UHGV virus genome: UHGV-0187309
Origin: a virus
Length of the DNA: 44,350 nt
Direction: 5' to 3' (one strand)
Each line of letters opens with the position of its first letter. Within the stretch, counting starts at the first letter, position 1. Below are positions 6,722 to 40,371 of this stretch, in pieces. The notes below the pieces were generated by a model, which was not told where the DNA came from, made no database searches, and saw nothing but the letters and a program-made list of their open reading frames with translations. The position numbers and the translations under genes were made by a program.

Positions 6722-6946
6722 GCCGCGGCATTCGGAGCATGGCAATTAGATCATTACATTTGTTAGTCAGGGCGCGCACTGGCGGACAGATGCTCATAGC
6801 GGAAATAACATCACGATTTGGAGTCTGTATAGACTGACAAGGTGTATTTCGTGTGGACATCGTCCCCTGCGTGCCTTTTTCTCTGGGACAGCAGTCGCGT
6901 TATGGGCATCTGCCGCTTGGTGTGTTCCTTGCAGAAAGGAACGATT

Positions 6947-7669
6947 ATGGAAAACGCAAATGTTCAGAATGCTGCCGCTATCACCGATAAGACCACCCTC
7001 GGCGAACTGCTTGCAATGCTTGACCTCGCTGATAAGGCAGGCAAGATGCCGACACCGAGAGAACTGTTTGAGACTGCCGGTTCGCCGATAGCCGATATGA
7101 ATGGCTGCACTCTCTTCAGCAACGGCTTCGCCATCTATCAGAATGTCACTGGGCGCACTGTTGTCTGGCTGCCGTACTGCAAGAGCTTCACCTATTACTT
7201 CGGCAAGCTCCGTGATTCCGAGAAAGACACGCTGACAGAGACCTATGAGCTGCCGGATGGATTTCTGGAAACACAGCCGTGGGTGATCGCAGTAACACTG
7301 ATCGGCGACCATCGTGTGGAGGCAAACAGCATGAACCGCACCGGCAGCCGCAAGGATACCACAGATTATGACAGCGCCGATAACGGCGATAAAGACGGTG
7401 ATGCAGAGGAGGCTTTGGCAGATCCGTATCGCAGGGCATTCAACTGGTATGACGGACGCATGGGCGAGAATCCGCAGGATGCCGTGGAGCGCAGAGAGAC
7501 ACGCGAGGAGATGCTTGCAGACATGACGGACAAGCAGCGTGAAGCCTTTATTATGTACTTCAGGGATGGTATGACGCAGGAAGAGATTGCTTCATATATA
7601 GGGGTAAGCCGTGATTCCATAAATGACAGGCTTGAAGGTGCTTTGAAAAAAGCAAAAAAATATTTTTAG
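6947..7669 (+). CDS. sigma-70 region-4-like HTH protein (possible phage sigma/transcription factor)
   Basis: Start at Met36 of the track ORF (AAAGGAA RBS). C-terminus TDKQREAFIMYFRDGMTQEEIASYIGVSRDSINDRLEGALKKAKK resembles sigma-70 region 4. N-terminal 190 aa unrecognised. Confidence 0.55.
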   Translation: MENANVQNAAAITDKTTLGELLAMLDLADKAGKMPTPRELFETAGSPIADMNGCTLFSNGFAIYQNVTGRTVVWLPYCKSFTYYFGKLRDSEKDTLTETYELPDGFLETQPWVIAVTLIGDHRVEANSMNRTGSRKDTTDYDSADNGDKDGDAEEALADPYRRAFNWYDGRMGENPQDAVERRETREEMLADMTDKQREAFIMYFRDGMTQEEIASYIGVSRDSINDRLEGALKKAKKYF

Positions 7670-17081: not shown

Positions 17082-17144
17082 GCACTGAAAAGACGACAAA
17101 GCGGCGACAAAACGGTTACACCGCACTCTATGGAGGTGAAAACT

Positions 17145-17648
17145 ATGGCGCGTAAGAACAAACGCCTGAAAACAGAATACCACAGAGGTCTCGGTTTTGA
17201 TCCGCGAAAGTATATGACTTCCTACTCCCACCAAACTCGCTGTGAATCAATTCCGACTCCCGACCGTGCTCCAAAGCGCGGCGATATCTGGTTTGCGCGG
17301 CTCGGCACACATCCGAATTCCAGTGTGCAGGGCGGCACCCGTCCCGTTATCATCATTTCTAACGACCTCGGCAACGAACACGCTGACACCGTCAATGTTG
17401 TGCCGATGACCAGACACCTGAAAAAGCCGGAGCTGCCTTGTCACACTCCGCTTTCTCCCGGCAGCATTACCGATAGCAGACAGCCGCTTGAACTGTCAAT
17501 GGTGCTGGCGGAGCAGCTCACAACTGTCAGCAAGAACGCACTTCGCTATTATGCAGGTCATATTTCCGATGACGAAGCTATGAACCGCATCGAAACCGCT
17601 GTTATTGCGCAGCTCAGTCTTGAAAGGAGATATTCCAAATGCCTGTGA
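17145..17648 (+). CDS. PemK/MazF-family endoribonuclease-like toxin with ~45-aa N-terminal extension
   Basis: GGAGGTG RBS before ATG 17145. PKRGDIWFARLG...GGTRPVIIISNDLGNEHADTVNVVPMT is the PemK/MazF core. No antitoxin-like ORF upstream. Confidence 0.72.
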   Translation: MARKNKRLKTEYHRGLGFDPRKYMTSYSHQTRCESIPTPDRAPKRGDIWFARLGTHPNSSVQGGTRPVIIISNDLGNEHADTVNVVPMTRHLKKPELPCHTPLSPGSITDSRQPLELSMVLAEQLTTVSKNALRYYAGHISDDEAMNRIETAVIAQLSLERRYSKCL

Positions 17649-28350: not shown

Positions 28351-28582
28351 ATGTGCGGTCGTGACCGCTTACACAGAGATTTCTATGCTCAAGGGCGACG
28401 ATCTGAAATATCTGTATGACTATCTTTCCGGCTTTATCGGCAGACCGGTGTATACACACGAGATTTCTGCTGTGGTGATGGCTTACAGAGAGCAGATCAG
28501 GGAGGACTTCCTCGATCTGTGCAGGAACGCAAAGGAGGCGGATGATGGATCAGAAACACTTGACTCTCGGCAGCTTATTTGA
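28337..28582 (+). CDS. hypothetical protein
   Basis: GGGGAGGA RBS. 81 aa. Overlaps both neighbouring MTase genes. Confidence 0.5.
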   Translation: MTKHECAVVTAYTEISMLKGDDLKYLYDYLSGFIGRPVYTHEISAVVMAYREQIREDFLDLCRNAKEADDGSETLDSRQLI

Positions 28583-31145
28583 CGGCTCCGGTGGCTTTCC
28601 GCTTGGCGGCATCCTTGCAGGGATCGAGCCGAAGTGGAGCAGCGAAATTGAACCATTCCCGGTGCTTGTCACGCACAAGCGGCTGCCGCAGGTGAAGCAC
28701 TACGGCGATGTATCCAAACTGAACGGAGCAGAGCTTCCGCCGGTGGATATCATCACCTTCGGCAGCCCGTGTCAGGATCTGTCCATAGCGGGCAAGCGCG
28801 CCGGAATCCATGACGGTGATCGGTCAAACCTGTTCTTTCAGGCGATCCGCATCATCAAAGAAATGAGGGATGCAACAAATGGACGATATCCGCGATACTG
28901 CGTCTGGGAAAATGTCCCCGGCGCTTTCTCATCCAACGGAGGAAACGACTTCAAGGCTGTCCTCGAAGCAGTTATCGGAGTTAAAGAAAAAGGGATCGAG
29001 GTGCCTGCGCCTGAAAATCACAGATGGGCAAAATCAGACGTATATCTGGGAGACGGATGGAGCGTGGCTTACCGAGTTTTCGATGCTCAATACTGGGGTG
29101 TCCCCCAACGCAGAGCAAGAATCTACCTTGTCGCAGATCTTGCTGGTGGAAGTGCCGGAGAAGTATTATTTAAGTCCGAAGGCGTGTCTGGGTATACTCC
29201 GCAGGGCTTCCGTGCGTGGCAAGGAGCTGCCGGAGGTGCTGAAGAAGGCACTGGAGAGACAGGCGGGCGGTCTGACGCTGGAGGTGGAACCCTCTGCCTG
29301 AATACACAGGGCAACAGCGGCGTCGGCATCACCGAGAACAAGGCTCTCGCACTGGTCGCACAGGATCATGGCAATCATCCGGCTGTGCTTCATGCGGTCG
29401 GTATCGACGGCTACAATGCTGCGGTCACCGATGATACGGCAGCAACGCTTGGTGTGAACTGCGGAATGTCCACAGGCAGAAACGGTGTCCTGCAGGCGGC
29501 GGGATTTTCCACAGAACACAGTGCAAAAGCAAGGAGCATCGGCTACGAGGAAGAGGTATCTCCCACACTTCGAGCCGGTGTTGTTCCGGCGGCAATGGAG
29601 TTATATGAAAATCATGGGCAGGACAGCAGATTCAGAGGACCTTTGGATGTAGCACAGCCTGTGACTGCTACCTACGGCATGGGCGGCAACAATCAGCCGC
29701 TTGTGGTAGAGAACAATCCCACGGACGGCAGAGCGAAGATCAATCCCGACGGTGTGTTTCAGACGCTCTGCGGACGAGCCGGAACAGGCGGAAACAACAC
29801 GCCGCTTGTTGCTGAACCGGTCACGCTGAAAATCAGGTCGGGATGTGAGGGCGGTGGCAAGGGTGCTTTATGGCAGACCGACAAGTCTGCTACGCTCGGC
29901 ACAAACAATGACCAGAGTGTATTTGTTCCGTTCGTCAAGGGAACACGTCCGCACTCTGCTGAAGAGGGGCAAACATGGAAACCCGGCGAGGTCGCCAATA
30001 CACTGAATACCTTTGATGTCGGTGAAAGTCGCTGCAATGAACTTGTGGTGGAAGAGCCGCAGATCAGGGCTTTCGGTGTATGCAGCAAGCATTCCAATGC
30101 GATGATGTCCGACAATCCGCACAGCGGATTCTATGAGGCGACCACAAGCAGAACGCTCGACCAAAGTGGTGGAAATTCTGTGACATCGAATCAGGGCGGC
30201 ATCTGCGTGGTAGCACCTGCGCCTGAAACCTTCGATGTGCGTTTCACATCAGACGGTACAAAAAACGCTCGTGGGCATTGCTATCCGACAGACATCTCCC
30301 GATGCCTTGATACGAGCGAGGGATCGCCAGACTCGAATCACGGCGGTGTCGCTGTGGTGGCTCTTGAACCGGGGGCTGCATCACGTGTCGGCGGTCATGT
30401 ATACAGTGACGGCAAAAGCGGTACGCTTCGAGCCAATGCCGGCGATAATCAGCAGGCTGTTGTGGTCGCCGAGCCGGAGACCTATGCTCTGCAAGGCTCG
30501 ATGATCGGTCGTGCCGACAAGAACGGTCCGCAGGGTGATGGCATCAACGAGGATGTGTGCTTTACGCTCAATACATCGGACAGACACGCCATTGCCGCAC
30601 CTGATCCGTCCTTCACAATTTCCCGCGACAACCATTTTGCCGTTTCGGAGGATGTATCCGTTACAGCCGTGGCAAGAGGCCCTGCGGCAGTCGCAGCACC
30701 GGCAGACCACTATTGCACCAGTAAGAATTCGCATCATACGGTCGCCGCCCATGAGCAGGCAAACACGCTGGTCGCTTCCGACTGGAAGGATCCGCCGCTT
30801 GTGAACGACCTTCCGAATGACGAGCCAGTATATATCGTTCGCCGCTTGACTCCGGTTGAGTGCGCCAGATTGCAGGGATTCCCTGACTGGTGGTGTGCCG
30901 ACCTTGCAATTACTGATCCTTCCGATGAGGAGATCGCCTTCTGGACGGAGGTCTGGGAGACATGGCGGCAGGTCACAAATCCCAAGGGCAAGCCGAAAAC
31001 GGAAAAGCAGATCCGCAAATGGCTGGCTGATCCGTACACGGATTCAGCGGAGTACAAGCTGTGGGGCAACGGTGTCTCAGAGCCGGTCGTATACTTCGTG
31101 CTTTCCGGCATCGCATGGGCAGCGCAGAGAGATACACAAAAGTGA
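28542..31145 (+). CDS. dcm: DNA (cytosine-5)-methyltransferase with ~570-aa repetitive variable (TRD) region
   Basis: Motif I LFDGSGGF, IV FGSPCQDLS, VI CVWENVPG, VIII QRRARIYLV, IX RRLTPVECARLQGFP, X LWGNGVSEPV. About 1.7 kb lies between motifs VIII and IX. Confidence 0.9.
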   Translation: MMDQKHLTLGSLFDGSGGFPLGGILAGIEPKWSSEIEPFPVLVTHKRLPQVKHYGDVSKLNGAELPPVDIITFGSPCQDLSIAGKRAGIHDGDRSNLFFQAIRIIKEMRDATNGRYPRYCVWENVPGAFSSNGGNDFKAVLEAVIGVKEKGIEVPAPENHRWAKSDVYLGDGWSVAYRVFDAQYWGVPQRRARIYLVADLAGGSAGEVLFKSEGVSGYTPQGFRAWQGAAGGAEEGTGETGGRSDAGGGTLCLNTQGNSGVGITENKALALVAQDHGNHPAVLHAVGIDGYNAAVTDDTAATLGVNCGMSTGRNGVLQAAGFSTEHSAKARSIGYEEEVSPTLRAGVVPAAMELYENHGQDSRFRGPLDVAQPVTATYGMGGNNQPLVVENNPTDGRAKINPDGVFQTLCGRAGTGGNNTPLVAEPVTLKIRSGCEGGGKGALWQTDKSATLGTNNDQSVFVPFVKGTRPHSAEEGQTWKPGEVANTLNTFDVGESRCNELVVEEPQIRAFGVCSKHSNAMMSDNPHSGFYEATTSRTLDQSGGNSVTSNQGGICVVAPAPETFDVRFTSDGTKNARGHCYPTDISRCLDTSEGSPDSNHGGVAVVALEPGAASRVGGHVYSDGKSGTLRANAGDNQQAVVVAEPETYALQGSMIGRADKNGPQGDGINEDVCFTLNTSDRHAIAAPDPSFTISRDNHFAVSEDVSVTAVARGPAAVAAPADHYCTSKNSHHTVAAHEQANTLVASDWKDPPLVNDLPNDEPVYIVRRLTPVECARLQGFPDWWCADLAITDPSDEEIAFWTEVWETWRQVTNPKGKPKTEKQIRKWLADPYTDSAEYKLWGNGVSEPVVYFVLSGIAWAAQRDTQK

Positions 31146-31222: not shown

Positions 31223-31405
31223 TCATTCAGATTTCTTGTCTCCGCCAAGCTCGATCTTTCCGTGCTTTTCCTCATATTTTTCAATGCAGTCACGGATCAG
31301 GATCAGAACCTGACTGTTGGCAGAACGACCTTCGTAATCGGCAACAACGTGAAGTTTATCAAGCATCTCCTGTTCGATACGGATGGATACACTTTTAATA
31401 GCCAT
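31223..31405 (-). CDS. ribbon-helix-helix (CopG/Arc-like) DNA-binding protein
   Basis: 60 aa. MAIKSVSIRIEQEMLDKLHVVADYEGRSANSQVLILIRDCIEKY fits a beta-alpha-alpha RHH. AAAGGAAG RBS. The only minus-strand gene between 4.4 and 44.3 kb. Confidence 0.72.
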   Translation of the reverse strand: MAIKSVSIRIEQEMLDKLHVVADYEGRSANSQVLILIRDCIEKYEEKHGKIELGGDKKSE

Positions 31406-31518
31406 AAAACAACTTCCTTTCAGATATATTATGACTTTATTTTAGACCTGTTTTGTGGTATAATGTTTGAAATGGATATAAAGTGTATCTAAAATATATC
31501 TATAAGAAGTTGTACGAT

Positions 31519-31857
31519 ATGAAAATAGCAATTATTGGCTCACGGGGACTTCATGTGAATGACCTTGAACGGTATCTTCCGGAAGATGTCACAGAAATCG
31601 TCAGCGGAGGAGCAAGGGGCATTGATTCGGATGCGCGGGCATACGCACAGGCACACGGCATTCCGCTGAAGGAGTTTCTGCCGGATTATGAACGCTTCGG
31701 CAGGAGCGCCCCGCTGAAACGGAATCTTGAGATCATCGCTTATGCCGATGTGGTGCTTGCATTCTGGGACGGACAGTCACGCGGCACGAAATATGTGATA
31801 GACCATTGCCGGGAACAGCACGTTCCGGTCAGGGTTTTCGCACCGAGAAAGAAATAG
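31519..31857 (+). CDS. SLOG-superfamily protein (DUF2493 / YpsA-DprA-like Rossmann fold)
   Basis: MKIAIIGSRG...VSGGARGIDSDARAYA...VLAFWDGQSRGTKYVI. Preceded by the extended -10 TGgTATAAT (hexamer 31459..31464). Confidence 0.7.
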   Translation: MKIAIIGSRGLHVNDLERYLPEDVTEIVSGGARGIDSDARAYAQAHGIPLKEFLPDYERFGRSAPLKRNLEIIAYADVVLAFWDGQSRGTKYVIDHCREQHVPVRVFAPRKK

Positions 31858-31936: not shown

Positions 31937-31992
31937 GTACTATGCACAATCTAAAGGGCAGACACGCCCCGTACATTCTCCGTTTTACAGTC

Positions 31993-32021
31993 TTGCATTC
32001 CGGGGCAAAAGACGGTAATAT
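31993..32021 (+). promoter_or_regulatory. cassette promoter P1
   Basis: TTGCAT 31993..31998, 17 nt, TAATAT 32016..32021. ATG at 32090. Confidence 0.55.
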
Positions 32022-32089
32022 GTGACTACGAAAACGCCGCAGCCCAACGCACAAGGCTGAGGGGCGGCAGTAAAAACGGAGGTAATCAT

Positions 32090-32998
32090 ATGGAAATCAA
32101 GTTCAATATTGAAAAGAGCCAGCGCAAGGCACTGGCACAGAAAATCGGCGAGCTGACAGGAGCAGAGGTCAAGTACCTCGGTGTACCGGGCTGCAGATAC
32201 CAGATCGACTTCTTCACCCTGGACAAAAACGCAGTCCTCAGTTTCAGCGACCGCATCGACACAGATATCGTGGAGAAGGTACTGAATGGGCTTGCAGAGG
32301 CAGGATATGAAAGCAAAACAGTAGCACCGCCGGAAGAAACGGATGCTTCGGCTGAATCAGAGCCGGATATCCCTGACGAACCGAGCAGCGGATTTCCGCT
32401 GCTCGCAAGCATCAGCTTCCCGATTGCAGAGCACACGGTGCAGAGCCTTACAAACCTTATCTGCATGATCCACTCCCGCGGCGCACTTCTCAGCAAGGCG
32501 ACCGGCGGACAGTTCTTCGCAGACAAGAGCCTCGCCGATGCGATCCTCGATGACAAGACCTTCCGCAGCATCCACGAGCTTATCGCCTACATCAGAGTAT
32601 GGGAGGAAACGAATCCCGAACTGAAGGGCATCCGTTTCGCCGATGACAAGCTGATCTTTGACGGCTTCGGTGCAGCGCAGGATGCCGAAACGGTGCAGAC
32701 CTTCACCAAGCTCGCCACAGCCATGAACAGGATGGCGATCACGCAGAAACGTGTGCAGGCAAAGGATGTCGATGACAGCAACGAAAAGTACGCACTCCGC
32801 ATCTGGCTGATCCGCCTTGGGCTGAACGGCGCAGACTGCAAGGTTGACCGCAAGCGCCTCATGGCTCCGCTTTCCGGACACACCGCATTCCGCAACGATG
32901 CGGAGCGTGTGCGCTGGGAGGCAAAGCAAAAGGCAAAGCGTGATGCTGCCAGAACCGAACTGACCGAGGAGGATGAAAACGATGCAGTTTCCGAATGA
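32090..32998 (+). CDS. hypothetical protein (C-terminal module shared with the amidoligase)
   Basis: 302 aa, GGAGG RBS. Acidic linker. C-terminal EKYALRIWLIRLGLNGADCKVDRKRLMAPLSGHTAFRN. Confidence 0.75.
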   Translation: MEIKFNIEKSQRKALAQKIGELTGAEVKYLGVPGCRYQIDFFTLDKNAVLSFSDRIDTDIVEKVLNGLAEAGYESKTVAPPEETDASAESEPDIPDEPSSGFPLLASISFPIAEHTVQSLTNLICMIHSRGALLSKATGGQFFADKSLADAILDDKTFRSIHELIAYIRVWEETNPELKGIRFADDKLIFDGFGAAQDAETVQTFTKLATAMNRMAITQKRVQAKDVDDSNEKYALRIWLIRLGLNGADCKVDRKRLMAPLSGHTAFRNDAERVRWEAKQKAKRDAARTELTEEDENDAVSE

Positions 32999-33230
32999 AA
33001 GACAGCTCAGAGCCTTGCGGGAGCGTTATCCCGCAGGCACCCGCATCCGACTGAAGCATATGGATGACCCTTATGCACCCGTACCGCCCGGCACGGTCGG
33101 CGAGGTTCAGATGGTTGATGACGGCGGCAACATACACATGGTCTGGGAGAATGGCAGAACGCTCTCCCTTATAGACGGTGTCGATGATTTCCAGGTCATT
33201 TCTGACCGCAATGGGGGCTCCGGAAAATAA
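32982..33230 (+). CDS. DUF4314-like protein
   Basis: YPAGTRIRLKHMDDPYAPVPPGTVGEVQMVDDGGNIHMVWENGRTLSLIDGVDDF. Second ATG chosen (GAGGAGG 9 nt upstream). Confidence 0.68.
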   Translation: MQFPNERQLRALRERYPAGTRIRLKHMDDPYAPVPPGTVGEVQMVDDGGNIHMVWENGRTLSLIDGVDDFQVISDRNGGSGK

Positions 33231-33343
33231 GAGATCCTATTCCATTGTATCCGAGTATACCATAGAATTTCAAGTATATCAAGTGTACACATACACCAGA
33301 TATGAGCAATGTATTTTCCTCGATATTCTGTGGTTTTAGCGGC

Positions 33344-33372
33344 TTGCTATATCCTCCGAAAGACGGTAATAT
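33344..33372 (+). promoter_or_regulatory. cassette promoter P2
   Basis: TTGCTA 33344..33349, 17 nt, TAATAT 33367..33372. Conserved leader to ATG 33428. Confidence 0.55.
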
Positions 33373-33427
33373 GTGACACAACGGAAGGGCAAACGCCCAC
33401 CGAAAAACCGAATCGGAGGATACCAAA

Positions 33428-34372
33428 ATGACTGAGAAAACCGCACAGCAGATCAACAGAATGAAGGAGCAGACCATCGGGGTTGAGATCGAGATGAACA
33501 ACATCACCCGCAAGGCTGCCGCAAAGCTCGCCGCCGACTTCTTCGGCACGAACCGCTACGAGGACACGGCCTGCCGCAACGGCTACGAAACCTACAGTGC
33601 TTGGGACGCACAGGGACGCGAGTGGAAATTCCAGAAGGACGTCAGCATCGCAGGCCCCGACAGCGAAAAGTGCGAACTGGTCACACCGATCCTGCACTAC
33701 GCAGACATCGAAACCCTGCAGGAGCTTGTGAGAAGGCTCAGAAAGGCAGGAGCGCGCAGTGATTACACGCGGGGATGTGGAGTCCACTGCCACATTGGAG
33801 CCCAGGGACACACACCGCAGAGCCTCAGAAACCTCGCAAACCTTATGGCAAGCCACGAAACCCTGATCGCCGAGGCAATCAGAGTAGACCAGAGCAGAAT
33901 GCACCGCTACTGCAGAACAGTTGACCCGAGATTCCTTGAACAGCTCAACCGCAAAAAGCCCACCACGATGGCACAGCTTGCGGACATCTGGTACGGCGCA
34001 CAGGGCTGCGAATACGGCAGAACCCACCACTACAACGACAGCCGCTATCACATGCTCAACCTCCACGCTACCTTCACCAAAGGCACGGTCGAGTTCAGAC
34101 TTTTCCAGTTCGCACCGCCTTCCAACGGCAAGCAGAACGGGCTCCACGCAGGCAAGCTCAAGAGCTACATTCAGCTCTGCCTCGCAATGAGCCAGATGGC
34201 AAAGGACCTGCGGAGCGCCAGCCCCAAGGAACAGCAGAAGGAAAACAAAAAGTTCGCCATGCGGACTTGGCTGATGAGAATGGGATTCATCGGGGATGAA
34301 TTCGCAACGGCGAGAGAGGTCCTCACTGAGAACCTTACGGGCGACAACAGCTTCCGCTTCGGCAGATCTTAA
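33428..34372 (+). CDS. putative amidoligase (Amidoligase_2, glutamine-synthetase-like fold)
   Basis: QTIGVEIEMNNITR...GREWKFQKDVSI...CELVTPIL...GCGVHCHIG...TVEFRLFQ. Pattern recalled from the Amidoligase_2 family. Confidence 0.75.
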   Translation: MTEKTAQQINRMKEQTIGVEIEMNNITRKAAAKLAADFFGTNRYEDTACRNGYETYSAWDAQGREWKFQKDVSIAGPDSEKCELVTPILHYADIETLQELVRRLRKAGARSDYTRGCGVHCHIGAQGHTPQSLRNLANLMASHETLIAEAIRVDQSRMHRYCRTVDPRFLEQLNRKKPTTMAQLADIWYGAQGCEYGRTHHYNDSRYHMLNLHATFTKGTVEFRLFQFAPPSNGKQNGLHAGKLKSYIQLCLAMSQMAKDLRSASPKEQQKENKKFAMRTWLMRMGFIGDEFATAREVLTENLTGDNSFRFGRS

Positions 34373-34637
34373 AGGCCTGCCCTTCGGGGCGGAAGAACAA
34401 GCGGAACGGCACGGCGGCGCACACAGCCGCCACGGTCTCGGCTCTCGCCTCGGTCGGTGCTTCTGCTTCGCAGAGGTTGCCACTGGCAACCCGCACCCCC
34501 GTGTGTGGCGGAAAGGGTATCCTCCGAATCGGTATCCCATCTCAGTCAACCGCGCCACACAGCGCAAATGTAGGCAAGGCATAAAATGCACAACATACGG
34601 CACAGAATCGCCCTCGATGATCTGTTCATTTACCCGC

Positions 34638-34666
34638 TTGATAATGCCGCCGAAATGAGTTAACAT
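34638..34666 (+). promoter_or_regulatory. cassette promoter P3
   Basis: TTGATA 34638..34643, 17 nt, TAACAT 34661..34666. Confidence 0.45.
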
Positions 34667-34705
34667 AGCACTACCGCAAGGAAAAAACGCAAAGGAGAAC
34701 ATAGC

Positions 34706-35173
34706 ATGAACAAGAAAAAATACTACATAGCCTACGGCAGCAACCTCAACATCCGCCAGATGCGATTCCGCTGCTCAGGCGCAAAGCCCATCGGCATTTC
34801 CGCGATTCCTGACTACGAACTGCTCTTCAAGGGCAGCAAGACGGGAGCGTACCTCACCATCGAGCCGAAGGACGGCGGGCTTGTTCCGGTCGCCGTGTGG
34901 GAAGTGACAGCCGACGATGAGAAGCACCTCGACATCTACGAGGGCTACCCGAACTTCTACTACAAGAAGGAAGTCCGCCTGCCAATCAGGCTGGCAAACG
35001 GCAAGACCAAAAAGGTCACGGCATTTGTCTACATCATGCACGAGGAGCGTGAGATTGCGATCCCGTCAATGACCTACATCCGCACCTGCGAGGAAGGCTA
35101 CCGCAACTTCGGCTTCGACACCAAGTTCCTTGATGCCGCCTACGAGATCAGCGCAAAGGAGGTACAGCGATGA
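34706..35173 (+). CDS. gamma-glutamylcyclotransferase (GGCT/AIG2-like)
   Basis: YYIAYGSNLNIRQMRFRC...LVPVAVWEVTADDEKHLDIYEGYPNFYYK. Confidence 0.82.
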   Translation: MNKKKYYIAYGSNLNIRQMRFRCSGAKPIGISAIPDYELLFKGSKTGAYLTIEPKDGGLVPVAVWEVTADDEKHLDIYEGYPNFYYKKEVRLPIRLANGKTKKVTAFVYIMHEEREIAIPSMTYIRTCEEGYRNFGFDTKFLDAAYEISAKEVQR

Positions 35174-35370
35174 AAGACCGCAACAAAGAGCCGCACATCT
35201 GCCCGAAATGCGGGCAGGCGTACACCGCCCGACCAGCTCTTTCCCGCGTGGATAACAGCCCAATCTGCCCCGACTGCGGAACGCGTGAAGCGCTTGAAAG
35301 CATCGGCGTCGGACGCGAGGAACAGGACAAGATTCTCGGCATCATCCACGAGAAGTACGAAGGCGAATAA
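35170..35370 (+). CDS. small zinc-ribbon protein
   Basis: CPKCG...16 aa...CPDCG. ATGA overlap with the GGCT gene. Confidence 0.6.
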   Translation: MKDRNKEPHICPKCGQAYTARPALSRVDNSPICPDCGTREALESIGVGREEQDKILGIIHEKYEGE

Positions 35371-35378
35371 GTCGGCAC

Positions 35379-35400
35379 AAAGGGGCGTTACAGCCCCTTT
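35379..35400 (+). terminator. GC-rich stem-loop without U-tract (terminator or RNA stabiliser)
   Basis: AAAGGGGC gttaca GCCCCTTT. Confidence 0.3.
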
Positions 35401-35527
35401 CCGCATTCTCAGGGATAACTTATCCCCCACTTTCCGGGCGTGACACGGCGCGTTCTGGCGCAAACTATGTACCTGTTCAGCTTGCTGAAAACGGCGATTC
35501 TTCTACGATTTATTTTGCACATAGGCG

Positions 35528-35556
35528 TGGACTTTTCAGGCAAAAGGCGGTAGTAT
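35528..35556 (+). promoter_or_regulatory. cassette promoter P4
   Basis: TGGACT 35528..35533, 17 nt, TAGTAT 35551..35556. Confidence 0.5.
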
Positions 35557-35613
35557 GTGACACAACGGAAGGGCAGACAGCCCACCGGAATTCATAACAT
35601 GGAGGATACGAAC

Positions 35614-36084
35614 ATGAACGACAGCTACTTTGAGGAGATGACCTTCCAGTGCGCCGCCTATGAACGCGCCAAAAAGGAGCGCGCCGAGCGCAAGGCTCAG
35701 ATTGCCGAAGCCCACGGCTACGACAGCCCGGAGGTGGACGCTTGGTACGCTGAGGAGAAGGCGGCAGGTCCTTACCCCTACAGCGGCAATGAGATGAAAG
35801 CCTACTGGGTGTACAAGATGCGCCGCGAGAACGACGGTGACGAGTTCGAGATGAGCGATTACTGCTGGGACAAGGAATTCCACGATTTCATCGAAACGCT
35901 CCGCAAGCTAGGCATCACCGAGTTCACGATCACCAATCAGAGCACGGCGCTGATGGAGAACATCTACGGATTTATTGCAGAAGGCTGCACGATGGTCGGA
36001 ACGCACACCATCACCAAGAAGAGCCTGCGCTGGGGCGAGGAAGAATACGAAACGGCACAGGGCATCCTTTTCAAGGTGAACTGA
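35614..36084 (+). CDS. hypothetical protein
   Basis: Start at the ATG preceded by GGAGGATACGAAC, the same RBS spacing as the other cassettes. 156 aa. Confidence 0.65.
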   Translation: MNDSYFEEMTFQCAAYERAKKERAERKAQIAEAHGYDSPEVDAWYAEEKAAGPYPYSGNEMKAYWVYKMRRENDGDEFEMSDYCWDKEFHDFIETLRKLGITEFTITNQSTALMENIYGFIAEGCTMVGTHTITKKSLRWGEEEYETAQGILFKVN

Positions 36085-36092
36085 TATCGACA

Positions 36093-36116
36093 GGAGCAGG
36101 GCTTCGGCTCTGCTCC
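36093..36116 (+). terminator. 10-bp stem with TTCG loop, no U-tract
   Basis: GGAGCAGGGC ttcg GCTCTGCTCC. The 21-nt core GCAGGGCTTCGGCTCTGCTCC recurs at 38541..38561. Confidence 0.3.
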
Positions 36117-36201
36117 CCTCCCCCTTTTCCTCATGTGTAAATCCTACAATACGAAAGGCTGAGATCGGCGATTCTTCTACGTTTTATTTTGCACATAGGC
36201 G

Positions 36202-36230
36202 TGGACTTATCAGCAGGATCATGGTAATAT
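36202..36230 (+). promoter_or_regulatory. cassette promoter P5
   Basis: TGGACT 36202..36207, 17 nt, TAATAT 36225..36230. Confidence 0.55.
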
Positions 36231-36285
36231 GTGACACAACGGAAGGGCAGAACGCCTACCGAAAAACGAAACGGAGGATAACACC

Positions 36286-36606
36286 ATGAACCCCTACACA
36301 CTGAGAAAGAGCCTGAACCTGATTGATGCCAACACGGCGATCACCCGCGAGGACTTCGAGAGCCTCTTCTGCAAGACTGCAGAGCGTGTCACCTTTACCT
36401 TCAACGGTTGGGACGGCAAGAGCTATGATGGCGAGAGGCGCAGCGGTTACGTTTACCGCACCATCATCGAGGGCTACGAGAATGTGAGATTCGTTAAGGT
36501 CGGCAAGGGACTGCATTACATCGATGAGGACAGCAGCATTACCGAGAAGGCTACGGGCATCGCCCACAAGGAAGCAGAGTGGCTGGTCGATGTGAAGAGA
36601 GCATAA
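36286..36606 (+). CDS. hypothetical protein
   Basis: 106 aa, CGGAGGATA RBS. Confidence 0.65.
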   Translation: MNPYTLRKSLNLIDANTAITREDFESLFCKTAERVTFTFNGWDGKSYDGERRSGYVYRTIIEGYENVRFVKVGKGLHYIDEDSSITEKATGIAHKEAEWLVDVKRA

Positions 36607-36672
36607 GCAAAACAGCGGAGCCCTTCCTGCGGGGAGGGCTTACCGCAGAAAAAAACATGGAGGTTTACGAAC

Positions 36673-37056
36673 ATGAGTACGAATTCAAGAGTCGGAATTC
36701 TGCATCAGGACGGCGTCACGGAGACAATCTACTGCCATTGGGACGGCTACCCCGAACACCAGATGCCCATCCTCACCGAGCATTATAACACCGCCGAGAA
36801 GGTCAAGGCACTGCTTGCCCTTGGAGACATCAGCATCCTCGGCGAGCGCCTTGCTCCCGATGCGGATGAGCCGCACAGCTTTGAAAAGCCTGCCGATGGT
36901 GTGACGGTTGCTTACCACCGCGACCGCAAAGAGCCGATGCAGCCTGCGGTCACCCACAAGAGCGTTGTTTCCCTGATGAGCGATGACTGGGGCATTCCGT
37001 ATTACTACCTTTTCGATGAGGAAAAAGGAGCATGGCTTCCGCCGACCGAGGACTGA
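36673..37056 (+). CDS. hypothetical protein
   Basis: 127 aa, GGAGG RBS 9 nt upstream. Probably co-transcribed with 36286..36606. Confidence 0.65.
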   Translation: MSTNSRVGILHQDGVTETIYCHWDGYPEHQMPILTEHYNTAEKVKALLALGDISILGERLAPDADEPHSFEKPADGVTVAYHRDRKEPMQPAVTHKSVVSLMSDDWGIPYYYLFDEEKGAWLPPTED

Positions 37057-37236
37057 TAGGTTCAGCCCTGCGGGGCTGACTTGCCCCACGTTGTCCTTTG
37101 TGCGGTTTTCCTGCGATAAGCTTGCCCCTGCGGAAAGCCGCCTCACACGGCGCGTTTGTGTGCCTCCTGTGGGCTTGGTGCTATGTATACAACAAATGGC
37201 GCAGATACGCCGATTTTGTTCTGAACATTTAGCCGC

Positions 37237-37265
37237 TTGCTATTCCGGAAAGATCATGGTAATAT
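37237..37265 (+). promoter_or_regulatory. cassette promoter P6
   Basis: TTGCTA 37237..37242, 17 nt, TAATAT 37260..37265. Confidence 0.55.
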
Positions 37266-37321
37266 GCTACACAACGGAAGGGCAAACGCCCACCGAATAC
37301 AAAACACGGAGGTAAACCACC

Positions 37322-37687
37322 ATGACAAAGAAGGAAATGAAAGCCGCAGTTGCCAAGCTGAAGATGCTGCAGAACGGCAAAGCCGCCCTTGAGGGAATGA
37401 CCGAAGCGGACTGCCTTGAGCTTTTCGGGATCAGCAGAGCGCAGGCACTTGCAAACACAAACGCCGCCCTTGCCAAAACCGAGCAGGAGATTTTCAGAGC
37501 CGAGCATCCGCTGACAGGCATCGACAAACAGCTCTTCGAGATCGCAGCAAAGCACCTGATCACGGTGCAGGAGCGCGGAGACCTTGAAGCCCGCCACTGC
37601 GACAGCGAGGACTTCATCGAGGGTTCGGTCTGGGGGCTGGAAGCCGCCCTCAAGGATGCCTACGAGGCAGGACGCAAGAGCAAGTAA
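37322..37687 (+). CDS. hypothetical protein
   Basis: 121 aa, CGGAGGTAA RBS. Confidence 0.65.
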   Translation: MTKKEMKAAVAKLKMLQNGKAALEGMTEADCLELFGISRAQALANTNAALAKTEQEIFRAEHPLTGIDKQLFEIAAKHLITVQERGDLEARHCDSEDFIEGSVWGLEAALKDAYEAGRKSK

Positions 37688-37749
37688 CCAAACGGAACAG
37701 CGCAGCCCTTCCGCAGGGAGGGGCTGCCAATCCCGAAGGAGGAAAGAAC

Positions 37750-37929
37750 ATGGATACATACGCACAGCTTGAAATGCTGACCGCAGTCATCGCAAACCTG
37801 TCGGCCACGGGAACATGGACGGAGCGAGAAGTGATGGAAACGCTGCTGGATGTCTTTGAACCGAAGGAGCTTGAACAGCTCGGCTACGGCGACTGCGTGA
37901 ACGCATACTTGGAAGAGTACGGCGGATAG
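37750..37929 (+). CDS. small hypothetical protein (59 aa; below the ORF-track cutoff)
   Basis: Own translation: MDTYAQLEMLTAVIANLSATGTWTEREVMETLLDVFEPKELEQLGYGDCVNAYLEEYGG. GGAGGA RBS 7 nt upstream. Confidence 0.5.
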   Translation: MDTYAQLEMLTAVIANLSATGTWTEREVMETLLDVFEPKELEQLGYGDCVNAYLEEYGG

Positions 37930-38099
37930 CGACGACACACGCACCACGTTGCCTCGTGTGGGGCGGTGCCGGGGAGATGCGTACAGCTTGCCCCTGCGAA
38001 AAGCCGCCTTACACGGCGCGTTCTGGCGCGTCCTATACGATGTACAATTCCGCCCGACTTCCCGCCTCATGTTTGTCACATTTATTTTGCAGACAGACG

Positions 38100-38128
38100 T
38101 GGACTTTTCTGCGAAAAGACGGTAATAT
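38100..38128 (+). promoter_or_regulatory. cassette promoter P7
   Basis: TGGACT 38100..38105, 17 nt, TAATAT 38123..38128. Confidence 0.55.
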
Positions 38129-38175
38129 GTGACTACCGCAAGAGAAGCGGAATCAATCAAAAGGAGCGAATCTAC

Positions 38176-38529
38176 ATGAAAATTCTGGTATGCGAACCCG
38201 GCAAGCACCCCTACGTCAAGGACATCGAGTCGGGGCTGGAGAACCTTCAGCACGAGGTGGACGGACTGATTCAGGCCCTCTACCCATTTTCCGAAGAGGC
38301 GGCTGTTGTGTGCAACGAAGAAGGGCTGTTCCGCGATGACCTCGAATGGAACAGAACGGTCGATCCCTATGGTCCGATCAAGGGAACATTCTTCATTTGT
38401 GGGCTCGGCTTTGAAGATTTTACAGGACTGACCGATGAACAGATCGAAAAGTACACTAAGCTCTTCTGGCCTCCTGAGCTTTTCATCCCGACACCGAACG
38501 GCATGGTGGTGCTTCACATTGTGGAATGA
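38176..38529 (+). CDS. DUF3846-like protein
   Basis: MKILVCEPGKHPYVKDIESGLENLQHEVDGLIQALYPFSEEAAVVCNEEGLF...GTFFICG. Confidence 0.72.
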   Translation: MKILVCEPGKHPYVKDIESGLENLQHEVDGLIQALYPFSEEAAVVCNEEGLFRDDLEWNRTVDPYGPIKGTFFICGLGFEDFTGLTDEQIEKYTKLFWPPELFIPTPNGMVVLHIVE

Positions 38530-38632
38530 CCGCAACAGGGGCAGGGCTTCGGCTCTGCTCCGCACTATTCCCCGGTCATAATGTACACAACTGAACGCCG
38601 AAAAATGCAGAAATGATCGTGATTACTCACGC

Positions 38633-38661
38633 TTGATAATGTAGGCAAGAAGAGTTATACT
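38633..38661 (+). promoter_or_regulatory. cassette promoter P8
   Basis: TTGATA 38633..38638, 17 nt, TATACT 38656..38661. Confidence 0.5.
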
Positions 38662-38718
38662 GTGTACAACGGAAGGGCGGAAAGCCCAGCCGAAAACGAA
38701 AATGCGGAGGTACACACC

Positions 38719-38898
38719 ATGAAAACGAAGCAGGAACTGATCGAGAAGGCAAAGAAAGAGTGGGGCGAGACTTGGAACGAGGGCATGATCGAGTACGATG
38801 CCGAGTACAACGAGTACATCGTCTGGGTAGGCAAGCCGGACATCTACAAAGCCTTCTTCGATGCCGACACCCTCAGATGCATTGGCACGAAGTGCTGA
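38719..38898 (+). CDS. small hypothetical protein (59 aa)
   Basis: CGGAGGTAC RBS. MKTKQELIEKAKKEWGETWNEG... Confidence 0.55.
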   Translation: MKTKQELIEKAKKEWGETWNEGMIEYDAEYNEYIVWVGKPDIYKAFFDADTLRCIGTKC

Positions 38899-38953
38899 GA
38901 ACAACCGCCGCCCTTCGGGGCGGCACAACACCAATACTAAGGAGGACATTTAC

Positions 38954-39226
38954 ATGAGCGAGAACACAGAAAAGCGCGATGCAGCCGAAGAACTAGAACT
39001 TACCGATGCACAGGCAGACCGCAACGATGACATCTACGAGGCAGCTTTTGAATTCTGCAAGGTGCTGACCGAGAACCCCGACCTCGAATGGGACATGGCG
39101 TTCCTCGGTGAGATCGCCGACCTTGCCGCTGGCATCATGACCGAGCAGGGACACAAGGTGCGGTTCCCCAGTGTGGTCACCGAGCAGGACGGCACGCAGT
39201 ACATTGAAGAATACTACGGCGGCTGA
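38954..39226 (+). CDS. hypothetical acidic protein
   Basis: AAGGAGGA RBS. 90 aa. Confidence 0.6.
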   Translation: MSENTEKRDAAEELELTDAQADRNDDIYEAAFEFCKVLTENPDLEWDMAFLGEIADLAAGIMTEQGHKVRFPSVVTEQDGTQYIEEYYGG

Positions 39227-39427
39227 TCGGCAAAACGGAGCAGTCCTTCTGCGGAGGGGCTGTTCCACGCCACGTTCGCTTGTGTGGGGGGCTTACGGCT
39301 TTCTGCGGATATCTTGCCCCGCGATAAAAGCCGCCCACACGGCGCATTTGTGTGCCTCCTGTGGCAAGGCATAATATGTACAACAACCGACAAAAAATCG
39401 CCTTGCACATTCTGGTAGTTTAGCCGC

Positions 39428-39456
39428 TTGATATATCTGCCGAAAAGAGTTATAGT
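39428..39456 (+). promoter_or_regulatory. cassette promoter P9
   Basis: TTGATA 39428..39433, 17 nt, TATAGT 39451..39456. Confidence 0.5.
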
Positions 39457-39512
39457 GTGTACAACGGAACGGGAAACCGAGCCGAAAACTACGAAAGAAC
39501 GAGGTAAACACT

Positions 39513-39749
39513 ATGTGGCACGAAGGCACGATTCTGGCACCGACCAAGGAAGGCAAGACGGTGGTTCACTACTGGGCAAAGGTCTACGACGAGGGCAGCC
39601 AGTACGGCATCAACGAGGGCAGAATCAGTAAACTGACACTCAAGGAGAATGGCAAGGTCATCTACAACTATGACAGAGGCGAGGATGTACCCGAGCAGAA
39701 CGAGGCTGCGGAGATTGCCCTTGCGATCCTGATGTACGAGTACAAGTAA
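39513..39749 (+). CDS. hypothetical protein
   Basis: 78 aa. RBS-like CGAGGTAA 7 nt upstream. Confidence 0.6.
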   Translation: MWHEGTILAPTKEGKTVVHYWAKVYDEGSQYGINEGRISKLTLKENGKVIYNYDRGEDVPEQNEAAEIALAILMYEYK

Positions 39750-39897: not shown

Positions 39898-40371
39898 ATG
39901 GCTCAGAGAGGCAGAAAACCGACGCCGACAGCAATCAAGGAACTGGAAGGCAATCCCGGAAAACGACCGCTGAATGATGCAGAGCCGAAGCCGGAACGCA
40001 AGGCACCGCCCTGTCCGAAGTGGCTGGAGCCCGAAGCAAAAAAGGAATGGCGCAGGCTGTCAAAGCAACTGGAGCAGATTGGTGTGCTGACCGAGGTCGA
40101 TCAGGCGGCATTCGCATCCTACTGTCAGGCATACGCACGATGGAAAGAAGCCGAGGAATTCATGACCCAGCACGGCACGATCGTAAAAACAAAATCAGGT
40201 TACTGGCAGCAGGTTCCGCAGGTATCCATTGCGCAAACTTATCTGAAGATCATGAACAAGATCGCAGAGCAGTTTGGCCTGACCCCGGCGGCAAGAAGCC
40301 GTATCACTGCCGGCGCAGATATGAAAAACGCTGCCGTTGACGATATGGATGAACTTCTCGGAGGTGGCTGA
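39898..40371 (+). CDS. terS: terminase small subunit (P27 family)
   Basis: MAQRGRKPTPTAIKELEGNPGKRPLN...PKWLEPEAKKEWRRL...FGLTPAARSRI. AAGGAGTG RBS. Confidence 0.85.
   Translation: MAQRGRKPTPTAIKELEGNPGKRPLNDAEPKPERKAPPCPKWLEPEAKKEWRRLSKQLEQIGVLTEVDQAAFASYCQAYARWKEAEEFMTQHGTIVKTKSGYWQQVPQVSIAQTYLKIMNKIAEQFGLTPAARSRITAGADMKNAAVDDMDELLGGG

Follow-up and report, generated by a model that had tools for sequence, protein, structure and literature searches.

Ligase, cyclotransferase and zinc-ribbon genes of a temperate gut phage as a candidate gamma-glutamyl cassette

Attention was first drawn to the Amidoligase_2 proteins of phages and mobile elements in 2009, and our search of the literature found neither a substrate assignment nor biochemical data for any member of the family. 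The window analyzed here, the whole 44,350-nucleotide sequence of virus genome UHGV-0187309, carries a gene of this family followed by genes for a gamma-glutamyl cyclotransferase (GGCT) and a small zinc-ribbon protein, which raises the question of whether the three genes work together and, if so, what reaction their products carry out. The window represents a temperate phage similar to Ca. Heliusvirales, and the phage order concerned is reported to be ubiquitous in the human gut (PMC11283538). The ligase, GGCT and zinc-ribbon genes lie within an accessory block that has DNA methylases on one side and the terminase on the other, and each cassette of the block has its own promoter-like site. The three open reading frames of the initial annotation were recovered on the forward strand and are listed with the neighboring features in Table 1. 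That annotation overlooked an amidoligase paralog, apparently dead, and a DUF4314 gene directly upstream of the ligase gene.

Table 1. Features of the ligase, cyclotransferase and zinc-ribbon locus and of the genes directly upstream
Feature	Position	Strand	Basis
Amidoligase paralog, predicted to be catalytically dead, 302 aa, 'virulence-related protein' family	32090..32998	+	phrog_2443, hhalign
DUF4314 small protein, 85 aa	32973..33230	+	Pfam PF14192
Promoter-like site for ligase (TTGCTA, 17 nt spacer, TAATAT)	33344..33372	+	read from sequence
Conserved leader motif ACAACGGAAGGGC	33378..33390	+	six copies in window
Amidoligase_2 enzyme, 314 aa	33428..34372	+	Pfam PF12224, phrog_2443
GC-rich UUCG hairpin (CTGCCC-TTCG-GGGCGG), without T-tract, 3' of ligase stop	34377..34392	+	read from sequence
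Promoter-like site for GGCT/zinc-ribbon unit (TTGATA, 17 nt spacer, TAACAT)	34638..34666	+	consensus scan
Gamma-glutamyl cyclotransferase, C7orf24/GGCT type, 155 aa	34706..35173	+	Pfam, PHROG, PDB profile
Small zinc-ribbon protein, 66 aa	35170..35370	+	CxxC pairs, phrog_2945
Terminator-like hairpin 3' of zinc-ribbon gene (AAGGGGC-GTTACA-GCCCCTT, then T-rich stretch)	35380..35399	+	read from sequence

Proteins of the locus and their transcription signals

The family that had been proposed for the ligase from the letters alone is upheld by profile searches. Its product matches Pfam Amidoligase_2 (PF12224) with an E-value of 1.1e-55 and 189.7 bits (cut-off 22) over residues 13-254, which spans profile positions 1-244 of 245, and it also matches phrog_2443 'amidoligase enzyme' at 4e-113. 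A glutamine-synthetase (GS) or glutamate-cysteine-ligase fold was found and, since PafA is also among the fold matches, the fold cannot separate free from protein-bound glutamate as the substrate. None of the residues E20, E22, E83, H120, H122, E222 and R224 varies among 65 homologs, and each keeps at least 90% conservation in a set reaching down to 37% identity; they fall on predicted core strands, and we take these acidic, histidine and arginine residues to be the equivalents of the GS metal and ATP ligands. The protein is thus predicted to be an ATP-dependent carboxylate-amine ligase with a gamma-glutamyl carboxylate as its most likely substrate. When longer homologs were searched for fusion domains, only Amidoligase_2 was seen, plus DUF6262 in one case.

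The cyclotransferase, likewise placed correctly at the outset, matches Pfam GGACT (PF06094) at 6.3e-13 with 49.8 bits (cut-off 22.8), AIG2_2 (PF13772) at 9.6e-7 with 29.6 bits (cut-off 27), and phrog_2520 'gamma-glutamyl cyclotransferase' at 1e-53. A profile of 13 homologs compared with the PDB gave human GGCT at 1.1e-17, GGACT at 2e-5 and YkqA at 0.04. Residues Y10-G11-S12-N13-L14 and E79 do not vary among the homologs; the first five make up the YGSNL motif for substrate binding, and E79, the catalytic glutamate, is aligned with the position that was mutated in the 3cry E98Q entry. The catalytic residues of ligase and GGCT are therefore both intact.

The zinc ribbon has two CxxC pairs, a conserved core of the form CPxCG...PALSRxDN..ICPDCGTREAL and a match to phrog_2945 at 4e-23; against Pfam it gives zinc-ribbon matches under the threshold only. 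Its AF2 model has a pLDDT of 85, and a comparison of the fold with the PDB returned no significant match (best E about 1). The protein ends in YEGE in the window, but the C-terminus varies across the family: of 120 family clusters 19 end in Glu, as do 37 of 95 locus variants; neither a conserved C-terminal Glu/Gln nor a conserved Lys was found when they were sought across the family. The idea that the zinc ribbon is a carrier like LysW or Pup, with a glutamate at its C-terminus, was accordingly rejected, because the C-terminus is not conserved. The stop codon of the GGCT gene (TGA, 35171-35173) overlaps the start codon of the zinc-ribbon gene (ATG, 35170-35172) and AAGGAGG stands at 35156-35162, an arrangement that indicates translational coupling of the two genes, as had been described.

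Ligase and GGCT genes are separated by 333 nt that contain both the UUCG hairpin and a separate promoter-like site, so that the two genes look like two transcription units rather than a single operon. Nine promoter/leader units can be aligned in the block; that of the ligase is among them, and its promoter-like site scores under the threshold of the consensus scan. The leader motif ACAACGGAAGGGC that comes after it is followed by a GGGC-N4-GCCC mini-hairpin and then by the ribosome-binding site GGAGG at 33415-33419; all copies of the motif in the window are on the forward strand, between 33.3 and 39.5 kb, and their number was reached in 0 of 100 shuffles. Comparison of the repeated leaders with Rfam, in search of a structured RNA, matched no family. 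A related copy of the UUCG hairpin is present at 38910-38930, and the promoter-like site of the GGCT/zinc-ribbon unit is homologous to sites at 38633 and 39428. At the terminator-like hairpin the consensus scan made no call.

Co-occurrence across phages and prophages

The co-occurrence of the genes was counted in 108 related loci, namely those with at least 2.6 kb on both sides. GGCT is found with the ligase in all 108. The zinc ribbon is there in 106 and is thereby an almost constant third member, a constancy that had escaped the initial annotation. Among 50,697 phage records searched, 41 of the 47 with a full-length ligase also contain GGCT, and 42 of the 45 with GGCT contain the ligase. The pairing holds down to about 38% ligase identity and is also seen in other prophage types, between integrase/HTH genes and the lysin. 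The expectation that the two genes travel together is borne out far beyond chance by these loci, phage records and other genome contexts, although a single phage order supplies most of the co-occurrence, which is in part shared descent.

Exceptions are found on both sides. The ligase occurs without GGCT in FP_Taranis-type phages and in PV036454, whereas GGCT occurs without the ligase in Bacillus phage G and in a Leptolyngbya phage; in Arthrobacter phages the ligase is paired with a class-II amidotransferase and not with GGCT. A zinc-ribbon homolog lies near the ligase in FP_Taranis, where GGCT is absent (HMM 8.9e-11), and the zinc-ribbon family is present without the ligase in FP_Mushu. These distant ligase contexts were drawn from annotated phage records and the FP_Taranis scan.

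Close relatives differ in which of the DUF7698, orf106, orf127, DUF6900 and DUF3846 cassettes their accessory block contains, but all of them keep GGCT. Twelve loci have GGCT upstream of the ligase, and there it is a different allele with at most 64% identity to the full-length GGCTs of the downstream type, although the ligases are about 92% identical; the GGCT gene has thus been replaced or moved and is still retained. Mean pairwise identity across loci is 78.7% for the ligase, compared with 63.5% for GGCT and 62.2% for the zinc ribbon, and the ligase is under stronger conservation than its partner proteins. Ligase identity is 72-98% across hosts from several Firmicutes orders, close relatives are present in at least 80 GTDB species representatives, and the family as a whole comprises more than 8,000 clusters at 90% identity, or 3,959 at 50%. 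In the protein searches and the contig scan, the best matches listed all belong to the dominant clade, of 63-97% identity. The ligase representative P0206 was not found among the viral contigs. An intron or intein splitting the ligase, for which tblastn reported '2 pieces' in five records, was rejected as an artefact for PV036426, the one of the five that was inspected, in which the C-terminal domain of the paralog is joined to an intact ligase.

A proposed two-step reaction and its alternatives

We lean, by a modest degree of confidence, toward the reading that ligase, GGCT and usually the zinc ribbon belong to a single functional cassette conserved in temperate phages of gut Firmicutes, and that this cassette carries out a two-step gamma-glutamyl reaction. 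Gene families, intact active-site residues, fold and co-occurrence are direct observations on the cassette; what chemistry is involved, which step comes first, which acceptor is used and what the zinc ribbon does are inferences. In the first step, to which the fold and the conserved residues point, the amidoligase would use ATP to phosphorylate the gamma-carboxylate of a glutamate, most likely free L-glutamate, and the activated glutamate would be joined to an amine acceptor X to give gamma-Glu-X. In the second step, suggested by the subfamily and the catalytic motif, GGCT would cyclize the gamma-glutamyl moiety to yield 5-oxoproline and X-NH2. Together these steps would make the cassette a transient, ATP-driven gamma-glutamyl 'attach and release' step, which could serve as a protecting group or a mark; if freely running, it would be a short-circuited gamma-glutamyl cycle that converts glutamate to 5-oxoproline. 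Since the cyclotransferase is closer to GGCT proper than to GGACT, we consider the alpha-amino group of an amino acid or peptide a likelier acceptor than a polyamine or the side chain of a lysine. For the zinc ribbon, the role of a stoichiometric partner that serves as regulator or adaptor is probable.

The same ligate-then-cyclize logic operates in butirosin biosynthesis, where BtrJ adds a protecting gamma-glutamyl group in an ATP-dependent reaction and the GGCT-fold protein BtrG later removes it as 5-oxoproline. BtrJ is, however, an ATP-grasp enzyme and not GS-like, and the butirosin pathway also involves a carrier protein and additional tailoring enzymes, which are absent here. The exceptions listed above, the shared descent behind part of the co-occurrence and the inability of the fold to tell free from protein-bound glutamate weigh against the cassette reading. 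So do the separate promoter-like sites of ligase and GGCT, and the point that a writer and an eraser expressed together would amount to a futile cycle unless separated in time or space.

Bolder forms of the proposal are quite unlikely. One is that the locus provides a self-contained phage 'gamma-glutamyl cycle' that, expressed from its own promoters in lysogens or early infection, would drain host glutamate and ATP into 5-oxoproline as a metabolic takeover or an abortive-infection-type exclusion; the other is that it attaches gamma-glutamyl groups reversibly to the N-terminus or a side chain of a conserved host protein, a new kind of modification, with the zinc ribbon choosing the target. Either a phage gamma-glutamyl cycle or reversible protein gamma-glutamylation, if true, would be the first assigned function for Amidoligase_2, which is very abundant in human-gut phages, and, were the target a conserved protein or a metabolite pool of the host, phages of the gut microbiome would be seen to manipulate their hosts in a new way. 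Otherwise, the locus is a well-annotated accessory cassette. The ligase, the cyclotransferase and the 66-residue zinc ribbon are the smallest version of the system and very widespread, and as small, soluble-looking proteins with predictable chemistry and easily detected products (ADP and 5-oxoproline) they offer a practical entry point to enzyme function.

In a reversible protein gamma-glutamylation, the main reading of the initial annotation, the ligase would put a glutamate or tag on a lysine or the N-terminus of a host or phage protein and GGCT would take it off; the zinc ribbon or the DUF4314 protein would then be adaptor or target. This is unlikely, as the cyclotransferase fits GGCT, an enzyme for gamma-Glu-alpha-amino acids, far better than GGACT, whose substrates are gamma-Glu-epsilon-Lys and amines (1e-17 versus 2e-5); moreover, the zinc ribbon lacks a conserved C-terminal Glu/Gln and a conserved Lys, its family is also found without the ligase, and the upstream paralog, its catalytic residues lost in the alignment described below, cannot be a Dop-like eraser. 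A modification of cell-wall precursors, in which gamma-glutamyl-type linkages would be added to or trimmed from peptidoglycan stem peptides so that the altered surface of the lysogen or infected cell excludes other phages, would agree with the location of the pair at the lysin/integrase junction in several prophages, a typical spot for lysogenic-conversion genes, and with a proteobacterial cassette containing both families, to which peptidoglycan modification is attributed on comparative grounds only (PMC5498523, PMC11945000). We consider it improbable, given that it rests on comparative prediction even for the proteobacterial cassette, that the ATP-grasp, COOH-NH2 ligase and Gn_AT_II of that cassette are missing from the window, that neither the ligase nor GGCT has a signal-peptide-like hydrophobic start, and that the hosts differ in stem-peptide chemistry, yet their ligases are 72-92% identical.

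There is a similarly slim chance that ligase, GGCT and zinc ribbon have no functional link and are independent accessory genes, adjacent through a co-inherited block. The separate promoter-like sites, with each gene of the block an autonomous cassette, would fit this, as would the presence of each family without the others and the origin of most sampled loci in one phage order, but other cassettes of the block come and go among close relatives while GGCT is kept, even when swapped for another allele at a new position, and the pair is met again in other genome contexts as well as in unrelated podoviruses. A role in DNA hypermodification, with the ligase extending an amine- or carboxyl-bearing modified base, is highly improbable despite the three DNA methylases and the SAM synthetase that lie a short way upstream of the ligase, the position of the cassette after the methylase cluster in Heliusvirales-like genomes, and the amidoligase/amidotransferase genes that lie beside thymidine-hypermodification genes in viral contigs (PMC8989533). 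The pair is also found where no DNA-modification gene is near, and no 5-hmU DNA kinase, aGPT-Pplase, dUMP hydroxymethylase or TET/JBP was found among the Pfam-scanned ORFs of the window; a cluster for thymidine or other DNA hypermodification was rejected, since the required genes, by the features given in PMC8989533, are absent from the window.

Known relatives and the upstream gene pair

The pairing of ligase and GGCT has already been predicted by comparative genomics, and the present locus is another member. Iyer, Abhiman, Burroughs and Aravind (Mol Biosyst 2009) reportedly predicted the neighborhoods of the GS-like Amidoligase_2 proteins of phages and plasmids, this pairing included. The same gene set is annotated as phrog_2443 and phrog_2520 in the prophages of C. 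clostridioforme LM41, of which phi13-alpha and phi13-epsilon have two 'amidoligase' ORFs with one gene between them and then GGCT (PMC11318856); the arrangement is that of the window, and nothing essential differs. What is added here to the known gene set is that the first 'amidoligase' appears to be dead, that the zinc ribbon is near-constant, that GGCT is of the C7orf24 type, and that the set is rearranged yet retained.

Podoviruses of the phiEco32, LUZ24, PaP3 and RIO-1 types carry a 'peptidoglycan-modification' or peptide-synthesis cassette whose function is predicted only (PMC3890496, PMC5498523, PMC11945000), and in LUZ24-like podoviruses a five-enzyme cassette unites both families (PMC3890496, PMC5498523). 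Like the window, the phiEco32/LUZ24-type cassette has Amidoligase_2 and an AIG2/GGCT-like protein together, theirs in one early-gene cluster, but it belongs to lytic phages of Proteobacteria, and the zinc ribbon, the paralog and DUF4314 are not reported there. A comparison of 60 ORFs of the window with Pfam found no ATP-grasp, COOH-NH2 ligase (PF14395) or class-II glutamine amidotransferase.

The gamma-glutamyl cycle of GCL and GGCT (C7orf24) differs in that the phage setting has no glutathione synthetase or transpeptidase beside the pair; the ligase has 9-13% sequence identity to GCL and no sequence-level PDB match. In contrast to the Pup ligase PafA and the depupylase Dop, the paralog here is without catalytic residues, so that there would be no competent deamidase or eraser paralog, and no small protein with a conserved C-terminal Glu/Gln is present; the eraser candidate is instead a cyclotransferase, an enzyme for which the alpha-amino group of the glutamyl moiety must be free. 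Unlike a LysW-type carrier system, the zinc ribbon has no invariant acidic C-terminal motif and the window has no ATP-grasp gene among its Pfam-scanned ORFs. A known anti-phage defense system was rejected, as PADLOC-DB gave no match for the ligase, GGCT, zinc ribbon, paralog or DUF4314 protein, and NCBIfam has no model for any of these five.

The paralog gave no match in the Pfam scan, but it matches phrog_2443 at 1.3e-43 and aligns with the ligase family by hhalign at 99.6% (E 2.9e-24, 202 columns). In the hhalign alignment, S and F stand at the positions of H120 and H122, I and D at those of E222 and R224, and the E83 strand is deleted, by which the paralog is predicted to be catalytically dead. 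The DUF4314 gene overlaps its 3' end by 26 nt and encodes a protein that matches PF14192 with an E-value of 7e-29. Paralog and DUF4314 are each found in 100 of the 108 loci. Streptococcus phage Javan630 and a C. butyricum prophage have the paralog but no ligase. DUF4314 is present in 159 phage records, 97 of them Streptococcus phages. In the Streptococcus records checked it adjoins the paralog, and none of those records is among the GGCT matches or the full-length ligase matches. Paralog and DUF4314 are a neighboring, separable pair that stands alone in Streptococcus phages.

Gene content of the cassette

The initial annotation described an Amidoligase_2-type ligase and an AIG2/GGCT-like cyclotransferase (GGCT), the latter translationally coupled to a small zinc-ribbon protein, and all three open reading frames were found exactly where it placed them. 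The ligase matches Pfam Amidoligase_2 over the entire domain (E 1.1e-55) and phrog_2443 (4e-113), GGCT scores above the thresholds of the GGACT/AIG2-like Pfam families and matches phrog_2520, 'gamma-glutamyl cyclotransferase' (1e-53), and the zinc ribbon, with its two CxxC knuckles, falls into phrog_2945 (4e-23). The coupling is likewise evident, as the stop codon of GGCT and the zinc-ribbon ATG share bases (ATGA) and AAGGAGG lies 8 nt 5' of the ATG. Since the 333-nt gap between ligase and GGCT holds a hairpin and a promoter-like site, the cassette can be read as two transcription units: the ligase alone, and GGCT with the zinc ribbon.

Both upstream neighbours, an amidoligase paralog and DUF4314, had been overlooked. 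The paralog has no Pfam match and is homologous to the ligase by BLASTP (4e-10, C-terminal 70 residues) and hhalign (99.6%, E 2.9e-24, 202 columns). Its alignment lacks H120/H122, E222/R224 and the E83-bearing strand of the ligase, it evolves fast (about 30-37% identity where the ligase holds 76-86%), and it is a predicted pseudo-enzyme. DUF4314 occurs in 159 phage records, 97 of them from Streptococcus phages; in the Streptococcus records checked, it sits at the same genome position beside the paralog, which is labelled 'virulence-related protein' there, and neither GGCT nor a full-length ligase was matched in any of them. The paralog and DUF4314 are treated as a separable sub-module, with common ancestry and a C-terminal helical domain shared with the ligase.

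The zinc-ribbon family comprises at least 6,812 clusters, every one a stand-alone protein of about 64-90 aa; two helices come after the conserved core, CPxCG-x6-PALSRxDN-x3-ICPDCGTREAL. Comparison of the model (pLDDT 85) with the PDB gave no significant structural neighbour. A Pup- or LysW-like carboxyl donor was considered for this protein, which ends in YEGE, and was rejected because the last residue is not conserved in the family; partner, regulator or adaptor are candidate roles.

Coordinates of the cassette and of other features in the window
Feature	Coordinates	Strand	Remarks
Sigma-70 region 4 protein	6842-7669	+	275 aa
PemK/MazF-like protein	17130-17648	+	E 9e-22
C5 cytosine methylase	28542-31145	+	867 aa
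Arc-like protein	31223-31405	-	60 aa; Pfam Arc, 1.5e-5
SLOG/YAcAr (DprA-like) protein	31483-31857	+	124 aa
Promoter/leader units	span 31960-39515	+	e.g. 33344-33419, 34638-34699, 35484-35600, 36158-36280, 37219-37315, 38630-38700, 39425-39500
Paralog	32090-32998
DUF4314	32973-33230	+	overlaps paralog 3' end
Ligase	33428-34372		314 aa
GC-rich UUCG hairpin	34377-34392	+	ligase-GGCT gap
Promoter-like site TTGATA-17 nt-TAACAT	34638-34666	+	ligase-GGCT gap, before GGCT
GGCT	34706-35173		155 aa
Zinc ribbon	35170-35370		66 aa
Large terminase	40371-43037	+	888 aa

Linkage of the ligase and cyclotransferase genes

Neighbourhoods of close ligase homologs were sampled, among the matches listed, from 80 IMG/VR loci and 80 loci of GTDB species representatives, and scanned with family HMMs built from the IMG/VR set; presence was counted only where at least 2.6 kb lay on each side (n = 108 among the loci listed). 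Co-occurrence of ligase and GGCT beyond chance is borne out, as GGCT is present in all 108 of these, the zinc ribbon in 106, and the paralog and DUF4314 in 100 each. The order paralog, DUF4314, ligase, GGCT, zinc ribbon is the most frequent (113/162 listed loci). In 12 loci a distinct GGCT allele, at most 64% identical to any full-length downstream-type GGCT, is found upstream of ligases that are about 92% identical; GGCT was replaced or moved there, yet not lost. The block's remaining cassettes (DUF7698, orf106, orf127, DUF6900, DUF3846), unlike GGCT, vary in presence even between close relatives. In a collection of 50,697 phage records, 41 of the 47 with a full-length ligase have GGCT and 42 of the 45 with GGCT have the ligase, and the pairing holds down to about 38% ligase and 35% GGCT identity.

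The sampled loci come mostly from one phage order, so raw co-occurrence counts overstate independence. Mere co-inheritance of genes without any functional link is nonetheless improbable in our judgement, and three observations go beyond shared descent: the allele replacement and reordering, a set that in divergent members is scrambled across both strands yet kept together, and the occurrence of the pair in different prophage types. In the phage record PV036419, ligase and GGCT lie on one strand and the paralog and a zinc-ribbon-domain protein on the other, and PV036415 and PV036459 show still other orders. In loci L223, L225 and also L221, which belong to different prophage types, the pair lies between integrase/HTH genes and the endolysin, the usual site of lysogenic-conversion genes. 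A passage in PMC3890496 places Amidoligase_2 and an AIG2/GGCT-like gene within one cluster of LUZ24-like podoviruses of Proteobacteria.

GGCT is missing from FP_Taranis, Pioen and relatives, where the ligase is accompanied by a homolog of the zinc ribbon (HMM 8.9e-11), and from PV036454, which combines ligase and paralog with a weak zinc-ribbon-like ORF; in Arthrobacter phages the partner of a distant ligase is a glutamine amidotransferase. Bacillus phage G and a Leptolyngbya phage carry GGCT but no ligase, and FP_Mushu (E 5.5e-19) and Bacillus phage Flasso have a member of the zinc-ribbon family but likewise no ligase. Therefore, no link between the genes is absolute; the finding is well supported as a real, linked enzyme pair.

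Predicted chemistry and alternative readings

Seven ligase residues (E20, E22, E83, H120, H122, E222, R224) are invariant in 65 close homologs, at least 90% conserved in a homolog set reaching down to 37% identity, and placed on core strands in an AlphaFold model (pLDDT 86, pTM 0.87). The ligase matches no PDB chain by sequence. Since the characterised enzymes among its fold matches act at the gamma-carbonyl of glutamate (or glutamine), gamma-glutamyl chemistry may reasonably be assigned to it by analogy, these matches being compatible with both free and protein-bound glutamate. GGCT aligns with human GGCT and keeps YGSNL and the catalytic glutamate, its E79 aligning with the residue altered in the E98Q entry 3cry. 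A 13-homolog profile scores human GGCT at 1.1e-17, GGACT at 2e-5 and YkqA at 0.04, and since this favours human GGCT over GGACT, the protein is assigned on sequence to the C7orf24 type, not the GGACT type. The former acts on gamma-glutamyl-alpha-amino acids, the latter on gamma-glutamyl amines and epsilon-lysine. An alpha-amino acceptor is favoured purely because of this subfamily resemblance.

In the best-supported model, a coupled two-step reaction, the ligase would spend ATP to form gamma-Glu-X, which GGCT would convert to 5-oxoproline and X. We incline slightly towards functional coupling through this chemistry, leaning to the alpha-amine of a small molecule or peptide as acceptor. Glutamate-cysteine ligase and GGCT follow the same two-step logic within the gamma-glutamyl cycle, as does the BtrJ/BtrG protect-and-deprotect pair. 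Reversible protein gamma-glutamylation is rather unlikely, the subfamily resemblance of GGCT pointing to an alpha-amine. DNA hypermodification is highly improbable, as the genes required for it (PMC8989533) were not found among the window ORFs scanned against Pfam. The pair as a coupled system, as the initial annotation read it, is plausible and unproven.

Iyer and colleagues are said to have also described, in 2009, an association of amidoligases with cyclotransferases. Passages in citing papers credit Iyer et al. 2009 with predicted phage amidoligase roles, mainly cell-wall modification alongside amidotransferases; modification of peptidoglycan precursors would be in keeping with these and is doubtful for the present pair. 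PHROGs gives names to both the ligase and GGCT families, prophages of C. clostridioforme share the order 'amidoligase, amidoligase, GGCT' according to a passage of a 2024 paper (PMC11318856), and functions still 'remain to be explored' in a passage of a 2023 paper. The locus therefore joins an already known group; none of the defence-system or NCBIfam models covers these cassette proteins. New here are the apparent loss of catalysis in the paralog, the almost constant presence of the zinc ribbon, the assignment of GGCT to the C7orf24 type, the retention of the set despite rearrangement and the cassette-style promoters. The cassette is unsurprising to a specialist, yet as a way into a question standing since 2009 it is unusually abundant and tractable.

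In some ligase homologs the N-terminus is extended by 120-240 aa that have no Pfam match (L227 3335-4891, in PV036419; L234 6001-7338, P0271; P0121, P0145, P0156, P0210, P0212 and P0268 are listed with them), P0197 has DUF6262 at its C-terminus, and P0248 is 956 aa long. At 72-78% identity, ligases turn up under the genome labels Alistipes, Bacteroidales, Succinivibrionaceae and Aeriscardovia and in many Firmicutes (record titles of L040-L162); those outside the Firmicutes come from short MAG contigs and may reflect binning errors rather than true host range.

Genome setting and the accessory block

The genome is that of a temperate tailed phage, encoding an S24/HTH repressor, PolA-type polymerase, D5-type primase, SNF2 helicase, SAM synthetase, NrdD, NrdG, three DNA methylases and small and large terminase subunits; among annotated genomes, human faecal phages of Ca. 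Heliusvirales come closest to it. The cassette is part of an accessory block at about 31.2-39.8 kb, with methylases on one side and the terminase on the other. Within this block, a copy of one promoter/leader unit precedes each of nine genes or gene pairs; the unit consists of a -35-like hexamer, 17 nt, a TAATAT-/TATACT-like hexamer, GTGAC(A)CAACGGAAGGGC, a mini-hairpin and GGAGG. The leader motif ACAACGGAAGGGC has six copies, a number reached in 0/100 shuffles, and several units have GC-rich UUCG hairpins downstream. The repeats match no Rfam family and resemble the promoter-stem-loop repeats of T4-type phages; they could drive co-regulation and also cassette shuffling between relatives. An Arc-like ribbon-helix-helix protein, whose gene lies at the beginning of the block in reverse orientation, is a candidate repressor of these promoters, and a protein with sigma-70 region 4 domains only, perhaps a phage sigma or anti-sigma-like factor, could recognise them.

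The first cassette of the block encodes a SLOG/YAcAr protein, found in some relatives only, with weak PADLOC matches to PsyrA (9e-6) and ShosA. A very large insert rich in Gly/Ala/Thr divides the Pfam match of the C5 methylase in two, and homologs of this enzyme (40-88% identity) lie upstream of the cassette in most related loci. In the large terminase, LAGLIDADG_3 (residues 303-369) is N-terminal to the ATPase and nuclease domains and looks like an intein or homing-endonuclease insertion. A PemK/MazF-like toxin domain protein is encoded within the replication module, between the SNF2 helicase and D5-type primase genes.
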